Shown here one piece after another: positions 34,843-41,239 of a DNA stretch of 48,438 nt. This DNA is from an uncultured bacterium (GTDB lineage Bacteria; Patescibacteriota; Minisyncoccia; Phycocordibacterales; PALSA-1337): NCBI GenBank assembly GCA_903864905.1, contig CAIPHR010000073.1:1-48438 (forward strand), given 5' to 3'. The position numbers were made by a program, and so were the translations under genes. Under the pieces are notes generated by a model. The model was not told where the DNA came from. It saw only the letters and a program-made list of their open reading frames with translations, and did no database searches. Within the stretch, counting starts at the first letter, position 1, and each line of letters starts with the position of its first letter.

Positions 34843-35469
34843 ATGACATTCCTAAGAATATCCCAGTTTCTGACATGGCCAATAGCTTTTGTCTATTTTC
34901 ACTTATTTTACCGTCTACGTATAAATGGTAGAGAAAATTTCAATAAAGTGAATAGTCCATTCATTATAATAGTGAATCATTTCAGTTTTGTTGATAGTTT
35001 TCTATTCCGTTTAATTCTAGGTTTTTCTACTCCACACCTACCACTTAGATTCATGGCAGTCGAAAAGTTCAGTTGGAAATGGCTCAATTTTCTTTCTGAG
35101 ATAGGAGTGGTACCATTTATTTATAGTATTTTTGGAGTGTTCGTCGTTGTTCCAGGACAAGGTCTTCAAAAGAATTTGGAGATGGCAAAGAAGATCATCA
35201 GTAAAAAGGGGAATATAGTCATCTACCCTGAAGGAAAAATTGTTACAGATCATGTGATCGCTCCATTCAGATCAGGTGCGGCAGTTCTTGCAATAGAGAC
35301 TAATACTCCAGTTATACCAGTCTCACTACGTCTTGGTGATAGACATTTTATTCGTAAAGACCTTGTTGTCAATATTGGAGAGCCTTTACGTGTTGGTGCT
35401 GAAGGAGATGTAGAAGTCACGGTCAAGATGTTTTATGAGTCTATATTGATGTTATATGCAATGGTATGA
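34843..35469 (+). CDS. plsC: 1-acyl-sn-glycerol-3-phosphate acyltransferase-like (PlsC family)
   Basis: 208 aa with the HX4D motif NHFSFVDS, plus YPEGK and PVIPVSL blocks. Confidence 0.75.
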   Translation: MTFLRISQFLTWPIAFVYFHLFYRLRINGRENFNKVNSPFIIIVNHFSFVDSFLFRLILGFSTPHLPLRFMAVEKFSWKWLNFLSEIGVVPFIYSIFGVFVVVPGQGLQKNLEMAKKIISKKGNIVIYPEGKIVTDHVIAPFRSGAAVLAIETNTPVIPVSLRLGDRHFIRKDLVVNIGEPLRVGAEGDVEVTVKMFYESILMLYAMV

Positions 35470-35544: not shown

Positions 35545-36189
35545 ATGCCGTTAAAAATCGAATCATTCGAAGACGAATTTATCGATAAGATCTGTAAAGA
35601 ATCAATCGATGGCCTCAATATATTTTATGAGATAAATTGGGTTCATCATTTACCTGTACCTATAGTGGTGAAAGATCGAAAATCAATCGACCTGTTAAAA
35701 AGAGAAAAAACTGAACCATGGGTAGTTGGATGGTCAGAAGGGAATAAAGTATTCATACTCGATCGTAATAATTTTGGCTCGGAGAGCAACCACAAATATT
35801 CGCCAGAGACATATCATTCATTATTGAAGCATGAGATAAGCCATGCTTTTTATCGGATTCTTTGTGGTGGAAATATGAAACCCATTTGGCTTTGTGAGGG
35901 AGTTGCCATATTTACGTCCGGACAAAATAGGGAGAAGCGTCCGGTAGAATGTTTCAAAGAATTTCTCAATTTCCAGGAAGACGGCGGTAGTGGAGTTTAT
36001 GCCGAATCTGGTTTCGCAGTATATTTATTGGTCAAGGAATTTGGAAAACAGAAGTTACTAGATCTTATTAAGGGACTTAAATCTATTACCTCACAAAAAG
36101 AATTTACAGAGTTATTTATAAAGATCTACGGTATTGAACCAACATATGAGAAGTTTAATGAGTTTCTCAGGAAATATTCGCTGAAGTGA
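35545..36189 (+). CDS. Peptidase-MA-like HExxH protein
   Basis: 214 aa with LKHEISHAF and, downstream, WLCEGVAIF (the HExxH ... EG.A pattern of the peptidase MA_2-type family). Confidence 0.5.
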   Translation: MPLKIESFEDEFIDKICKESIDGLNIFYEINWVHHLPVPIVVKDRKSIDLLKREKTEPWVVGWSEGNKVFILDRNNFGSESNHKYSPETYHSLLKHEISHAFYRILCGGNMKPIWLCEGVAIFTSGQNREKRPVECFKEFLNFQEDGGSGVYAESGFAVYLLVKEFGKQKLLDLIKGLKSITSQKEFTELFIKIYGIEPTYEKFNEFLRKYSLK

Positions 36190-36255
36190 ATGATTGCTAA
36201 TAGTGCTGTTCAGGCTAGGGAACATAATTGACAGTGAAAACCGGGGTATGATGCA

Positions 36256-36747
36256 CTAGATCTTTTTATTCCCAGATTCACGATTACGTTTTTTGATGCG
36301 ATCTTCTAATTCTTTTAATGGCGCTATATCAAACTGTTGTCTTTCTTTATCAGTAGTCCTTGAATCAATGGGCGATAATACCCATTTGCTGCTGGCATCT
36401 TTTTTCCAAGATTGGGTGCCGAATTTTTGTTTTTTACCCCTCTTGAGAAGCAGCCTGTCTAAACATGTTGCATAGAATGCCAGAGCTTTCTTATATCCGA
36501 GCTCATGACTGATCTTAGAGAATCTGACAGCTTTGACCGAGTCTAGAATGCTTCCGCCATGTTGAACTATCATTGCCGCATGATAGTAGTCTTTTGCTGA
36601 TACGAGCTTACCTGTACGAATGAGACCTTGAACAACCCTCCTCCTCTCTCTATCATTTTTTGTAAGCAAAGACGCATCATTCCGTATCATCGGGTTACGT
36701 CGGTCTTTTTGATCATCATTGAATATTCTTAGTAGCTTCTTATTCAT
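36256..36747 (-). CDS. Hypothetical protein
   Basis: 163-aa basic protein with no recognisable motif. Confidence 0.55.
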   Translation of the reverse strand: MNKKLLRIFNDDQKDRRNPMIRNDASLLTKNDRERRRVVQGLIRTGKLVSAKDYYHAAMIVQHGGSILDSVKAVRFSKISHELGYKKALAFYATCLDRLLLKRGKKQKFGTQSWKKDASSKWVLSPIDSRTTDKERQQFDIAPLKELEDRIKKRNRESGNKKI

Positions 36748-36761
36748 AAGATGATTCTATC

Positions 36762-36797
36762 ATAAAAAAGCCGCCAAAAACTTATTCTGACGGCTTT
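36762..36797 (-). terminator. Orphan minus-strand intrinsic terminator (probably the original terminator of the disrupted HK gene)
   Basis: On the - strand: AAAGCCGTC-loop-GGCGGCTTT followed by a T-run. It lies upstream of the start of the 36256-36747 gene and about 100 nt downstream of the HK remnant. Confidence 0.5.
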
Positions 36798-36899
36798 CCT
36801 ATTTGCTTTATCTCCTTCCGAAGAAGGCGAGCCCGAAGGCATTTGTAATTATAGGTTAGCATACCAGATTGCAAAAAGCACATTTCCAGGGTTCTTTTG

Positions 36900-36985
36900 C
36901 TATAATGGCATCTTTACCCTCACCCTCGCGCCCTTTCCTTCATCATCTGACTCGATCTCTAATATTTCGTGATATATCCAAGAAA
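36900..36985 (-). pseudogene. Decayed 3'-terminal remnant of a histidine-kinase gene
   Basis: Minus-strand frame ..IYHEILEIESDDEGKGARVRVKMPL* aligns with AHHGTLEIESDGEEMGARVKVGMP of the HK at 40315-41139. 36906-36961 matches 40333-40388 at 49 of 56 nt. Confidence 0.65.
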
Positions 36986-37027
36986 CTCCATTCAAAATGG
37001 GTGCTGTTTCGGCATATTGACTTTCCG

Positions 37028-37064
37028 TTTTCTGACCAGTATACAACTTGTACTGGTCAGAAAA
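37028..37064. repeat. Perfect 14-bp inverted repeat (TTTTCTGACCAGTA / TACTGGTCAGAAAA) with a 9-nt spacer
   Basis: Read directly. It lies just inside the left end of the R-M island, about 85 nt upstream of the MTase promoter. Confidence 0.8.
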
Positions 37065-37179
37065 GGCACATTTTGCCCAGTGTGCGTCCATTCCTACTCA
37101 AAATTCATGTTTTCGATCGATGCCTAGTATCTTTATAAAATAAATACTATAATTGAGCTAATAGAGGGTTGAATTAAAA

Positions 37180-38004
37180 ATGAAAACACTTACTTCCACA
37201 TTACCAAAGATTGCTAGCTTGTCGACACAACAGAATCTACAACTGCTGGATATTAAGCGTGAAATAAATATAGTGAAGAAAGACTGCGTCAAGTTTCTTA
37301 AAGATATTAAAGACAATACTGTGGACCTGATTGTAACAGACCCAGCGTATTCTGGGATGAATGAGAAACTGAAACTAGGTCACGGGAGGATTGTTGGAGA
37401 TTATGGAAAAGAAGGTAATTCAAAATGGTTTGAGGAATTTCGAGATGATCCAGAAAATTTTAGGATTTTCCTTGCTGAATGTAAAAGAGTTCTTAAAGAT
37501 GGAGGCCACATCTTCATCATGTTTGATAATTTTTCGTTGCTCACATTAGGTCATTTGATGCGGGAATTCTTTGATGTTAAGAATATTATTGTTTGGGATA
37601 AGGTAAACATTGGCATGGGACATTATTTCAGACGGAGACACGAGATGATTATTTTTGCAAGTAAAGGCAAGAGGAAGTTGAACAATAGGAGGACTCCTGA
37701 TGTATGGAGATTTAAGCGTATTCATAATGCGGCGTATCCCACACAAAAACCAGTTGAATTATTTGAGGCTATGATCAACGGAAGTGCGAGCCAAGACTTT
37801 TTAGTTGTCGATCCATTTATAGGGAGCGGTAGTTCAGCCATTGCGGCGATTAAAAAAGGCTGTAAATTTTTAGGTTGTGACCTTTCCGATGAAGCTGTGA
37901 GTATAACGAAGAAAAGAGTAGACCATTATTTACATACAGGGCTCGATTTATTACAGCCGGAAAGTTCCGCATTACCAGCTGACATTCTGAACAAATTCTG
38001 GTAA
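37180..38004 (+). CDS. Type II DNA methyltransferase, beta-class N6A/N4C (DPAY variant of motif IV)
   Basis: 274 aa. Motif IV DLIVTDPAYSG, with motif I VVDPFIGSGSSAIAAIKKG downstream. Confidence 0.8.
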   Translation: MKTLTSTLPKIASLSTQQNLQLLDIKREINIVKKDCVKFLKDIKDNTVDLIVTDPAYSGMNEKLKLGHGRIVGDYGKEGNSKWFEEFRDDPENFRIFLAECKRVLKDGGHIFIMFDNFSLLTLGHLMREFFDVKNIIVWDKVNIGMGHYFRRRHEMIIFASKGKRKLNNRRTPDVWRFKRIHNAAYPTQKPVELFEAMINGSASQDFLVVDPFIGSGSSAIAAIKKGCKFLGCDLSDEAVSITKKRVDHYLHTGLDLLQPESSALPADILNKFW

Positions 38005-38015
38005 TCTTCAAGTTT

Positions 38016-39761
38016 ATGGATACACGGACATGGTCTATTCCAACTTCTCCTCGATCACCAATAAAATTGGTCAGTCATATCTCGTTGCTGAAAAAGTTTG
38101 AAGGAAGAAAGTGGAATACGGACACTCAAAAAGAATACGCAAGTAAATTAGTAAAGACTGAAGGTTTTGAAGGTGAAGGATATTCTGCTGAAATGGCTTT
38201 TTCTGCCAGAGATATTGTTAATAGAGCGCCTAAAACATTTGGTTTCGTGAGAGCTGATAGTAAGACACCTATCATAATAACTTCAGCTGGTAAGAGGTTA
38301 ATTGAAGGTAAACAGTTAGATGACCTATTTTTAAGGCAACTTTTGAAGTGGCAATATCCGTCTGCCAAACACAGCGAACAAATTTATAAGGAACGGTTTC
38401 TTATAAAACCATTTCTAGAAACACTTCGCCTTATTCGGGAGCTAGACGGACTGAGTAAATTGGAGATTGCGATATTTGCTGTTCCATTCATCAAATACTA
38501 TGAGTATGAAATAATAAAAAAGGAGGTAATCAATTATCGTAGAGAATTGAGTCTATTGAAAGGTGTAGAAAGAAAAAAGTTTCAGACCCAGTATCATCTA
38601 AATAAAATGAAGAAGATCTATGCCGAGGAAATATCATCCGGACATTTACATCTAAGAGAAGCTGGAGGTGTAGAAGCAGATATACTCGATTATCTTAAAA
38701 CAAAAAGAAGAAATACAATTGATTACGCTGATGCAGCGATTAGGTATTTCAGAATGACGAACTTGTTCGTGATTTCATCGCATGTCTACAAACTTGGGAT
38801 TTCTGAGGATAAAGTAAAAATTGTTGATGATATTTTAAATACGATTCCTCGCGAGCCTATGTCATTTGATGATGAGGAAAAGTTTTTTGAGTATCTTGAA
38901 GATCCGAATACGCCTAAGTTGCTTACAGACAATCCTGGTGGACTAAAAACCCAGATTCATGAGATGGTACAAATCCTGAAAGGACTGAATGATAAATCTG
39001 CTTTAGATATATCTAGTAAACTTGAAAAAGAGAATGATACTGCAGGGCTCAAGATGATACTGGCTGATGCCGAAAGGATCATTCTGAAGATAAAACAGAA
39101 ACGGCAGATTGATATTTTACAGAGTTACTCGGAATATGATGATATTCAGTCTGTGTTTGATCAGTTAATTGCTCGAGATAGTGATATTCCAGATAAGCCA
39201 TTATTTTTCGAGTGGAATACGTGGCGAGCGCTAAGTATGCTGGATGATGGAGAAATTGTAGGTAATCTTGAGCAAGATATTGAGGGTATGCCGGTTAGAT
39301 TGGCACTTGGTGGCTTTCCTGACATCGTATGTTATTACAAGGATTTTGTTCTTGTTGTGGAAGTGACTTTAACATCCGGTCGTAGACAATATGAGGCTGA
39401 ACAGGAACCGGTATCGAGACATGTCGGAGACGTTATTAAACAACTTAAAGAAAAAGGTGATATGAGAAATGTCTTTGGGCTATTTTTAGCTCCTGTTATT
39501 AATGAAGCTAGTATAGCGCATTTCTATACCACAAGAAGAATTGAAGTCAGTTATTATGGTGGAAAAGTTAAAGTTATACCGCTGTCTATTGTTGAATTCC
39601 GACAAATGTTAGAAAAGGCAAAACAGGCTGGAGGCGTTAAGTCTGGGCACATACAGAGATTCATTGAAAACGCCGATGAATATGCTGATAATTCTGGTAA
39701 TGAGCAGGAGTGGTTTAAATATATAAAAGATCTCTCAAAAGATTGGGTTGACGCTAAATAG
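38016..39761 (+). CDS. Putative Type II restriction endonuclease (possibly AlwI-like family)
   Basis: 581 aa, starting 11 nt after the MTase stop. C-terminal PD-(D/E)xK-like GGFPDIVCYY..VLVVEVTLTSGRRQYEAEQEPVSRH. The family call is from memory only. Confidence 0.55.
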   Translation: MDTRTWSIPTSPRSPIKLVSHISLLKKFEGRKWNTDTQKEYASKLVKTEGFEGEGYSAEMAFSARDIVNRAPKTFGFVRADSKTPIIITSAGKRLIEGKQLDDLFLRQLLKWQYPSAKHSEQIYKERFLIKPFLETLRLIRELDGLSKLEIAIFAVPFIKYYEYEIIKKEVINYRRELSLLKGVERKKFQTQYHLNKMKKIYAEEISSGHLHLREAGGVEADILDYLKTKRRNTIDYADAAIRYFRMTNLFVISSHVYKLGISEDKVKIVDDILNTIPREPMSFDDEEKFFEYLEDPNTPKLLTDNPGGLKTQIHEMVQILKGLNDKSALDISSKLEKENDTAGLKMILADAERIILKIKQKRQIDILQSYSEYDDIQSVFDQLIARDSDIPDKPLFFEWNTWRALSMLDDGEIVGNLEQDIEGMPVRLALGGFPDIVCYYKDFVLVVEVTLTSGRRQYEAEQEPVSRHVGDVIKQLKEKGDMRNVFGLFLAPVINEASIAHFYTTRRIEVSYYGGKVKVIPLSIVEFRQMLEKAKQAGGVKSGHIQRFIENADEYADNSGNEQEWFKYIKDLSKDWVDAK

Positions 39762-39862
39762 TATGGTTACGGATGAGCTAACGACCCTCATTGCGACCCT
39801 CACCTCTTTTCCTTCAGTAAGAACAATCAACATTGGTATAGCCGTACCTAACAAGTCGGCTT

Positions 39863-40261
39863 TTATTGACTCCTAAAAGGTTTTATCCACCCAAGATCTT
39901 TCCACAATCTCAATTCATCAGAATATGGTAGACCAGCCTCCGGAATAGTATTTAGATAACAAACCTCGATTTTTTTATTGACGGCTCTGTTCAATCCTAT
40001 AGCAAACGCCATTTCCGCAAATACTCCAGCACCTATATAACCAGGTATGCCTTTCTTGTCCAAATTGAGTGCCAGTAATATATCTGTTTTAGTAATGGCA
40101 TCATAATGTTGAGAAAATTCCTTTTCATATCCACGACTTAGGTCACCTAGTATTTTTGTAGGATACTTGATGACATCAAAACCTTTTTTCTCTAGTCTGT
40201 CTTTCCAATCCAATATTTCTGCTTCAAATGATGCGCTGGCGCAGATAACTATTTTTTTCAT
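39863..40261 (-). CDS. Nucleoside 2-deoxyribosyltransferase-like / nucleotide N-hydrolase-like protein
   Basis: 132 aa with a Rossmann-like KKIVICASASF start and GYIGAGVFAEMAFAIG (a G..E.G.A-type motif). Confidence 0.4.
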   Translation of the reverse strand: MKKIVICASASFEAEILDWKDRLEKKGFDVIKYPTKILGDLSRGYEKEFSQHYDAITKTDILLALNLDKKGIPGYIGAGVFAEMAFAIGLNRAVNKKIEVCYLNTIPEAGLPYSDELRLWKDLGWIKPFRSQ

Positions 40262-40314
40262 AAGCAGTATGTTATTGATAATAGAATTTACTTTAATTAT
40301 ATATCATAAGATAA

Positions 40315-41139
40315 TTATAAAAAAGATACCCGTGGCATCCCCACCTTCACCCTCGCGCCCATTTCTTCACCATCTGACTCGATCTCTAGTGTCCCATGAT
40401 GCGCACGGACGACAGCGCGTGCTACAGATAGTCCGATACCCATACCGATGGGGTTAGCAGACTGCGCGCGTTTACTGCGGTAGAAGTGTCTGGTGAATAG
40501 TTTTTCCCGATCTTCGGCGATGAGGCCGATACCTGTGTTTTCGACCATCATCTCGAATGTGCGGCCGGAAGTGCCATCAACCACTCGCGTCTTGATCTCT
40601 ATCGTCCCCCCATCCACATTGTATTTAACCGCGTTCTCTAGAATGATGAGTAGAACCTCACGCATCTTGCCCGCGTCGATCTCGAGGTCAGGCCAGCTAG
40701 CACCGTCATGCGGGTACACAACTTTGAGATGCATTTTTTCAATATCTATCTTCAATTCATGGAGCACATCCTCGACCAATGGCAGGAGATTACCAGTCTC
40801 GATGTTCAAGATCTGCGAGCCGACCTTGAGCGCGGTGATGTTCAAGAAGTCATCGACGATGCGCGTTAGTCTCTCTACGGCGGTATTGGTATCCGTGAGC
40901 GCCTGGATTTGTTTGGGGTTGAATGTCCCGTATGTTCCACCCAGCATCGCTTCTAACTGCCAACGGATGCTAGTTACTGGCGTACGCAAGTGGTGCTGAG
41001 TGATCATGATGAATTGATCCTTGGTCTCATTTAGCTTCTCCAATTCCCGGCGGGCGTGCTTCTCGAGCCCGTATGCTTTGCGGACTTCGGCGGTCTGTTC
41101 TGCCACTTTTTCGGAGAGGGTGGAGTTGACACGATGCAC
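40315..41139 (-). CDS. 5'-truncated histidine-kinase paralog (DHp and CA domains only; may be a pseudogene)
   Basis: 274 aa, about 85% identical by eye to residues ~290-563 of the HK at 44431-46122. Has the H-box ITQHHLRTPVTSI, N-box ILENAVKYN and GMGIGLSVAR. It lacks the whole TM sensor region. Confidence 0.6.
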   Translation of the reverse strand: MHRVNSTLSEKVAEQTAEVRKAYGLEKHARRELEKLNETKDQFIMITQHHLRTPVTSIRWQLEAMLGGTYGTFNPKQIQALTDTNTAVERLTRIVDDFLNITALKVGSQILNIETGNLLPLVEDVLHELKIDIEKMHLKVVYPHDGASWPDLEIDAGKMREVLLIILENAVKYNVDGGTIEIKTRVVDGTSGRTFEMMVENTGIGLIAEDREKLFTRHFYRSKRAQSANPIGMGIGLSVARAVVRAHHGTLEIESDGEEMGARVKVGMPRVSFL

Positions 41140-41239
41140 ATAAACATTGTAGTCTCATAATTAGATTTAACGGTTGAAACCGCTTGTGCGGAATTGATCA
41201 ATTCACTAACAGTTCACTGACAATCAGTAATACGAAAGA

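Follow-up and report, generated by a model that had tools for sequence, protein, structure and literature searches.

A fossil histidine-kinase gene end and a putative hotspot of stepwise gene gain in a patescibacterial genome

Gene ends that are displaced by incoming DNA have been described in several forms. In Rhs/CdiA orphan arrays, new ends arrive by recombination in a conserved core, and the insertion of e14 and phage 21 at icd is integrase-mediated, with a fixed att core. DNA taken up by natural transformation in Acinetobacter and Streptococcus can also be joined by homology-facilitated illegitimate recombination, as de Vries and Wackernagel reportedly described in 2002. Here we analyze a histidine kinase gene (HKfull) and the accessory genes beside it in an uncultured patescibacterium, on contig C73, the whole of which (48,438 nt) is referred to as the window. 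The window carries, on the same strand and in this order, HKfull, a 5'-truncated kinase copy (HKtrunc), and a 23-codon kinase tail, so that there are two displaced C-terminal copies of falling length. A cassette for a ribosomally synthesized and post-translationally modified peptide (RiPP) lies between HKfull and HKtrunc, and a restriction-modification (R-M) pair lies between HKtrunc and the tail. R-M genes are themselves known to insert with long target duplications, and most of the published cases concern bacteria that are naturally competent (Nobusato et al. 2000; Furuta, Abe and Kobayashi 2010, PMC2853133). The short tail at 36.9 kb proves to be a genuine remnant of a histidine-kinase 3' end, and it appears to be one instance of a process that recurs at this gene end across the genus, because same-strand kinase-tail copies bracket different cargo in relatives.

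The architecture of the window is a variant of these known gene-end displacement scars. As in Rhs/CdiA arrays, a full-length gene is followed by same-strand, 5'-truncated copies that become progressively shorter and keep a core piece together with the old C-terminus. However, the gene in the window is a signaling kinase and not a polymorphic toxin, its tips are conserved catalytic domains rather than variable toxins with cognate immunity, and its cargo (R-M, RiPP cassette, and resistance-like genes) is functionally unrelated to the displaced tips. The e14/phage 21 case at icd, with its icdC remnant, is similar in that incoming DNA supplies a substitute 3' end, which leaves the target whole and its former end as a fossil downstream, but there is no integrase here and repeat lengths run from 26 to 800 nt. 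Homology-facilitated illegitimate recombination would share with our locus a one-sided homologous anchor, a join at 3-8 bp of microhomology, and independence from a dedicated recombinase. On the other hand, it is known experimentally from model bacteria only and usually comes with deletions rather than duplications, whereas here the process is inferred from junction sequences.

Bacteria of the candidate phyla radiation have very small genomes in which classical mobile elements are few, and the routes by which they gain defense and secondary-metabolite genes are poorly understood. The source genome (1.04 Mb, 97% complete, 95 contigs; G000 in our numbering) has a GC content of 38.9%, and its size and gene content are typical for Patescibacteria. 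The surroundings of the kinase were compared across 93 genomes of the genus and 25 metagenome loci, with G-numbers denoting genus genomes and L-numbers denoting metagenome or ENA loci or extracted loci.

A repeat search of the window returned one direct-repeat family with three members (36906-36973, 40333-40400, and 44440-44507). Nucleotide alignment of the three kinase 3' ends, as proposed in an earlier note on this DNA, places the remnant in this family, with 82% identity to HKtrunc and 72% to HKfull over 68 nt. The 56-nt core that the note had singled out (36906-36961 against 40333-40388) matches at 49 of 56 nt (87.5%), has a BLAST E value of 2.4e-13 against the 1.04-Mb genome, and is significant against a shuffled background: when the window was shuffled 200 times with its dinucleotides preserved, the best 56-mer match had a mean of 28 identities and never rose above 32/56. 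The kinase-like minus-strand frame that it had described is also present, with the core reading ..LEIESDDEGKGARVRVKMPL before a stop codon and the minus-strand open reading frame (ORF) 36900-37091 ending in ..HEILEIESDDEGKGARVRVKMPL before its stop. Homology between the remnant and the kinase is confined to the last ~23 codons. An extension of the remnant upstream of 36973 was considered, where the ORF looks faintly kinase-like by eye ('SDQYKLYT..' vs 'EDREKLFT..'), and rejected, as this stretch is the relic of an ATPase promoter/operator on the opposite strand.

HKtrunc corresponds to residues 290-561 of HKfull with 84% amino-acid identity, and the membrane sensor is gone. Between the two copies, the ratio of nonsynonymous to synonymous substitution rates (dN/dS) is 0.12, with a dS of 0.77. 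At ~41131 the homology of HKtrunc ends abruptly, where the -35 box of the RiPP cassette promoter lies; this box is the cassette's own left end, which meets HKtrunc inside a shared heptamer, GAGTTGA. The 5' breakpoint and the flanking promoter are common to G000, G073, and G043. Since the truncated kinases of G073 and G043 have the identical 5' break and a similar TTGACA..TGTAGTCT promoter with other genes behind it, the junction between HKtrunc and the promoter is probably older than the present cargo. It had been suggested that each cargo block restored a new kinase C-terminus, which is not demonstrable, as the kinase copy beside the R-M block has itself lost its 5' part and its sensor.

Orthologues of HKfull are spread across the genus, and their upstream synteny is kept (a methyltransferase and a second, divergent kinase), while the downstream side is variable. 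In G006, G013, G067, L081, and L099, the kinase and acyltransferase orthologues are convergent, with stops 11-71 nt apart; this adjacency is the simplest arrangement and is probably ancestral. In the source genome, the two genes stand 9 kb apart, with cargo between them. Same-strand copies of the kinase tail sit at the far end of the insert and bracket blocks of 1.5-3.6 kb in at least five other genomes or contigs (Table 1), and the cargo differs per locus, including ABC-F, aminoglycoside-phosphotransferase-like, methyltransferase, radical SAM, HisRS/HisZ, AstE-like, GNAT, and TrpR-like genes, with no recombinase among them. The DUF6624-like gene to the left of the fossil is 83-87% identical in G043:C26, G073:C38, and L083 and always stands downstream of a same-strand kinase copy; L083 and G073 show the kinase and then this gene without R-M, but their flanks differ.

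The repeats measure 26, 56-68, 128, 180, 254, and ~800 nt, and their end points vary, some falling before the stop codon and one 45 nt past it. No exact core is common to the kinase-tail repeats across events. The varied lengths and end points therefore argue against a fixed att site. As had been claimed from the sequence, there is no recombinase gene among the genes at 31.3-48.4 kb of the window, and none was found in the inserted blocks of G018, G043, G073, and G075. Genome-wide, we found only one tyrosine recombinase (PF00589), on contig C52; this genome-wide search did not extend to serine recombinases or DDE transposases.

Table 1. Features of the kinase-acyltransferase region in the window, and kinase-tail copies at related loci
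Feature	Positions	Strand	Details
Acyltransferase, ancestral convergent neighbor of the kinase (probable), left border of variable region	34843..35469	+	PF01553, E=4e-17
DUF6624-like gene, genus-native	36256..36747	-	weak PF20329 match
sRNA-like module relic (putative)	36762..36880	-	promoter-like TTTGCA-16-TATAAT, two small hairpins, terminator hairpin 36762-36797
Histidine-kinase 3' end fossil	36900..36973	-	last ~23 codons + stop; left copy of direct repeat
Promoter/operator relic	37012..37104	+	TTGACT-17-TATACA, palindrome 37028-37064
N6/N4 DNA methyltransferase, single, 274 aa	37180..38004	+	PF01555, E=1.9e-32
AlwI-family (type IIS-like) restriction endonuclease	38016..39761	+	PF09491, E=6.9e-58, full length; N.BspD6I in PDB E=1e-65
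Small alpha/beta protein, 132 aa, genus-native	39863..40261	-	possibly nucleoside deoxyribosyltransferase-like but unproven
5'-truncated kinase copy HKtrunc, 274 aa	40315..41139	-	DHp + CA domains only (HisKA + HATPase_c); tail 40333-40400 = right repeat copy
Azole-peptide (YcaO) cassette, three genes, second cargo block	41140..44384	+	bracketed by ~0.8-kb kinase repeats
Full-length seven-transmembrane (7TM) histidine kinase HKfull, anchor gene, 563 aa	44431..46122	-	PF16927 + PF00512 + PF02518
G073 kinase-tail repeat			128 nt, 87.5% identical, around 2.4 kb
G075 kinase-tail repeat (matching contigs L087, L091)			180 nt, 86%, around 3.2 kb
G018 kinase-tail repeat			26 nt, exact, around 3.6 kb
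L094 kinase-tail repeat			254 nt, 81%, around 1.5 kb
L089 kinase-tail relic			48 aa
G043 truncated kinase copy			on another contig

On balance, we lean toward reading the interval between the kinase and the acyltransferase as a recombinase-free hotspot of accessory genes that grows by stepwise C-terminal displacement. Since the repeat lengths vary, two junctions carry microhomology, cargo occurs elsewhere without the kinase, and no recombinase is present, the events would be anchored by homology in the kinase core and completed by an illegitimate join. Incoming DNA from related bacteria would carry a kinase 3' segment linked to cargo; one end would recombine homologously through the highly conserved block coding for the dimerization/phosphotransfer and catalytic domains (DHp-CA), and the other would be joined at a few bases of microhomology. 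Because the homologous anchor lies at one end only and the join at the other is illegitimate, the resident gene end would be pushed downstream instead of being replaced. The methyltransferase (MTase) and AlwI-type restriction endonuclease (REase) pair would have arrived as one such cargo. Later turnover of the hotspot would then have swapped earlier cargo and left short edges of it behind, namely a toxin-linked small RNA (sRNA) module and an ATPase promoter. Natural transformation would be the entry route. The earlier picture of two cargo blocks accreted at the kinase 3' end holds in that cargo is piled between the kinase and the acyltransferase with two displaced tails, but the part that made one of these blocks a single R-M island does not.

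The divergence between the copies bears on where the repeats came from. For relic against functional tail, dN/dS is 0.12 (dS 0.93) in L094, 0.11 in G073, and 0.46 in G075, and no copy pair longer than 26 nt exceeds 88% identity. When a target is duplicated and one copy drifts neutrally, ratios of ~0.5 or above are expected, along with young, near-identical pairs. The mostly synonymous divergence thus suggests that both copies were functional genes during most of the time since they parted. The repeats are probably homeologous gene ends, which diverged in different lineages and were then brought together, and not target duplications.

Several observations weigh against displacement by imported DNA. 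No empty site or intermediate allele was found in the 93 genus genomes, the 25 metagenome loci, or five conspecific contigs, and these five contigs keep the same arrangement or break inside repeats. Exact-protein look-ups with the REase and the DUF6624-like protein likewise yielded no empty site, nor did the metagenome search that the earlier note had proposed, carried out as a scan for the junction 20-mer. For the 23-codon remnant in the window, dN/dS is 0.54 on 13 substitutions and is uninformative. Low dN/dS could also be obtained if the full copy had converted the truncated one. The two copies of G043 share lineage-specific residues, hinting at conversion, and these residues together with the HKtrunc breakpoint common to G000, G073, and G043 hint at some concerted evolution rather than fresh import. 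Moreover, competence and the uptake of homeologous DNA are assumed for the source organism.

The kinase 3' region could instead have been duplicated locally in tandem, for instance by replication slippage or template switching, with gene conversion, decay of the extra copies, and the gain of unrelated genes between the copies to follow; we regard this as unlikely. Within-genome copies are closer to each other than to the copies of other genomes in G043, G073, and G075, one HKtrunc breakpoint is common to three genomes, and the DHp-CA half of the kinase is 10-18 GC points richer, as expected under frequent conversion. However, such a duplication needs a separate insertion mechanism for each cargo block, placed exactly between the copies, and conversion would have to persist for a long time to yield the synonymous-biased divergence (dS 0.6-0.9), yet it has not homogenized the copies.

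We then consider the R-M pair, whose genes stand 11 nt apart on the same strand. It appears to be an ordinary AlwI-type system, and its unit is self-contained and consists of two ORFs only (2.6 kb). Like the AlwI-family type IIS systems (AlwI, MlyI, PleI, and N.BspD6I/Nt.BstNBI), it has a full-length PF09491 match, a strong match to N.BspD6I, and an adjacent N6/N4 MTase, but it has a single MTase and no small-subunit gene, and its REase may cut DNA or only nick it. AlwI-family genes occur in 3/93 genus genomes, and an identical REase is found on five other contigs from other samples with the same neighbors. Composition was tried as a sign of foreign origin and is uninformative, with a GC content of 37-38% in the R-M genes vs the genome mean of 38.9%.

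The nearest relative of the pair is on an ENA contig (L058:2537-5115), where the REase is 93% and the MTase 76% identical and the genes are flanked by DUF2130 and DUF4268 genes, with no kinase there. Nucleotide homology to L058 covers only 37279-39750, beginning in the MTase coding sequence and ending at the REase stop codon. The N-terminal ~30 residues of the MTases are nearly unrelated, and the REase is the better conserved of the two. In R-M pairs, the MTase is normally the better conserved partner, and this 93%/76% pattern is unusual. The R-M genes of this relative are thus found in another context without the kinase, which the earlier note had named as a point against its own reading; at the same time, the kinase-tail scars of the kind it described do recur in relatives, around non-R-M cargo.

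Next to the pair, the gene at 39863-40261 has an orthologue (78%) in a housekeeping neighborhood of G021. It gave no Pfam, NCBIfam, or PDB sequence match; its single-sequence AlphaFold model is poor (pLDDT 62), and the top Foldseek match, to a nucleoside deoxyribosyltransferase (NDT), reaches only E=2.8e-3 and a TM-score of 0.33. An NDT assignment is unproven, as NDT, CheY-like, and TIR folds score alike in Foldseek and sequence searches are negative. Of the three genes previously listed between the repeat copies, the MTase and the REase are borne out by Pfam, and the deoxyribosyltransferase label is unconfirmed by family searches.

On the left side of the pair, positions 37012-37104 are homologous to the promoter/operator before AAA_14/DUF4143 ATPase genes in G021, G108, G051, and G084, with the same TTGACT-17-TATAC(A/T) boxes, a palindrome (TGACCAGTA..TACTGGTCA), and a third half-site. 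In the window, this relic has no ATPase gene and is directed at the MTase gene 75 nt on; the MTase and REase are now probably read from this captured promoter. Its counterparts lie at L061:~1960-2034, L062:~1972-2042, L063:~1942-1992, and L064:1264-1315.

Because the R-M homology ends at the REase stop, the promoter relic belongs to another locus, and the small gene is native in G021, the 3.4 kb between the repeats is a mosaic in which a two-gene R-M unit stands between an ATPase-promoter relic and a genus-native gene. The description of these 3.4 kb as one R-M island was not borne out, since the relic and the native gene separate the R-M unit from the repeats. The R-M genes may have arrived after the kinase-tail repeat had formed.

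It is quite improbable that the kinase 3' end was invaded by the R-M unit itself, with a target of ~60 bp duplicated on entry and the copies then diverging in place. The locus resembles R-M insertion with long target duplication in these respects: a type II pair lies between direct repeats of >30 bp (56-68 nt) that overlap the 3' end of a neighboring gene, the insert is <20 kb (3.37 kb), and there is no transposase, integrase, or other mobility gene, in agreement with published criteria (PMC2853133). The AlwI family is also type IIS, the class of the first reported cases (PMC2853133), and is patchy in the genus. On the other hand, the R-M homology unit (37.2-39.76 kb) does not abut the repeats, from which it is parted by relics of other loci and the genus-native gene; the same kind of kinase-tail repeats surrounds non-R-M cargo at five other loci; the repeats are 82-88% identical vs 93-100% in published cases (PMC2853133); and no empty-site genome aligns to a single copy.

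We consider it very unlikely that integrase-bearing elements, or cis-mobilizable elements served by a recombinase in trans, targeted an att site in the kinase 3' end, brought a replacement gene end, and have since lost their integrases. In favor of such decayed integration, the layout resembles icd/icdC, where cargo separates an intact gene from its displaced pseudo-3' end, insertions have hit this one gene end again and again within the genus, and the G018 repeat is exact over 26 nt. Against it, no integrase is present in any of the six inserted blocks examined, the genome has one tyrosine recombinase, and repeats of 26-800 nt with differing end points share no exact core between events.

Displacement anchored in the kinase core may extend beyond this gene. 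We tentatively entertain the possibility that Patescibacteria gain accessory genes by a general, recombinase-independent displacement of gene ends in which a conserved 3' coding block, here the DHp-CA half of the kinase, serves as the homology anchor for homeologous DNA acquired from relatives. If so, stacked fossils would form a readable, datable record of successive acquisitions, and anchor genes would be predictable landing pads for defense and antibiotic-type cargo in reduced genomes. The locus itself would provide such a landing site behind a conserved kinase, where R-M, RiPP, resistance-like, and other genes are swapped without an integrase.

To the left of the fossil, the earlier note had placed an orphan minus-strand terminator of the kinase. 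The hairpin with its T-run does exist, with a 16-bp consensus stem, and was missed by a simple terminator scan, but it is not the kinase's abandoned terminator, because it belongs to a ~120-nt module that is conserved beside PemK-like toxin genes. This module is kept at 84-91% in >10 genus genomes, and a genus DNA search found none of the copies downstream of an HKfull-type kinase. Aligned copies share the promoter-like box, two small UUCG-type hairpins, one of which shows a compensatory C-G to U-A change in the window, and the 16-bp terminator stem. In G085 and G075, a solitary gene for a 132-aa PemK/MazF-like toxin (PF02452, E=2.5e-14) converges on the module, whose terminator overlaps the last eight codons of the toxin gene (..RKAAKNFF, then the stop). 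On the opposite strand of the module in the window, all that remains of the toxin gene is KKAAKNLF and the stop codon (36764-36790). The other side of the module meets the DNA that natively precedes the DUF6624-like gene within an 8-nt microhomology, CGGCTTTT, which is present in both parents. A search of 36100-37250 gave no Rfam family for the module and only chance miRNA-like matches on the palindrome. We regard it as a candidate antisense or antitoxin sRNA linked to the toxin. Together, the terminator hairpin and the neighboring inverted repeat appear to be relics of two other conserved regulatory modules. An intact kinase directly before this element, which synteny with relatives had been expected to show, was not seen: in orthologous loci the hairpin module is not 3' of the kinase stop, and the L083 kinase has its own, different hairpin. 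Further copies of the module lie at L052:2996-3110, L053:2761-2875, L054:2778-2892, and L055:3943-4060.

The second cargo block, the YcaO cassette, is homologous at the nucleotide level to loci in G042, G018:C24, G108, and G019, with sharp borders (starts at 41123-41201, ends at 44293-44366). It occurs without kinase fragments in G042, G018:C24, and G108. In L072 (G018:C24; 5507-9383) and L074 (G108:C15; 51-3920), the precursor gene, the last ~26 YcaO codons, and part of a DUF2268 peptidase gene are tandemly duplicated. In G019, the cassette lies 2.4 kb downstream of a kinase orthologue of ~405 aa. Orthologues of this length, which end after DHp and have no catalytic ATPase domain, are L073:9729-10943 (G019) and those on G004:C9, G011:C4, and G037:C14.

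Most kinase orthologues have a DHp-CA half that is 10-18 GC points richer than the 7TM half (L029, L031, L032, L050, L055, and others). In G023, the two values are 0.53 and 0.33, respectively, which exceeds the expectation from amino-acid composition alone. This GC-rich half may reflect frequent recombination or conversion. The gene at L100:9068-10858 (SXGQ01267337.1) was considered as a fourth 5'-truncated copy and rejected, as it is a full-length kinase in which a different sensor domain is joined at the same boundary: from '..NSTLSEKVAEQT' on, its DHp-CA block matches the HKfull family, and its sensor domain is of the neighboring HK2 type. The domain swap in L100 falls at the boundary where HKtrunc begins. 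Finally, the second kinase gene of the window, at 47101-48438, is cut by the contig end and resumes on contig C57 (100% overlap), which places the assembly break inside a kinase repeat.

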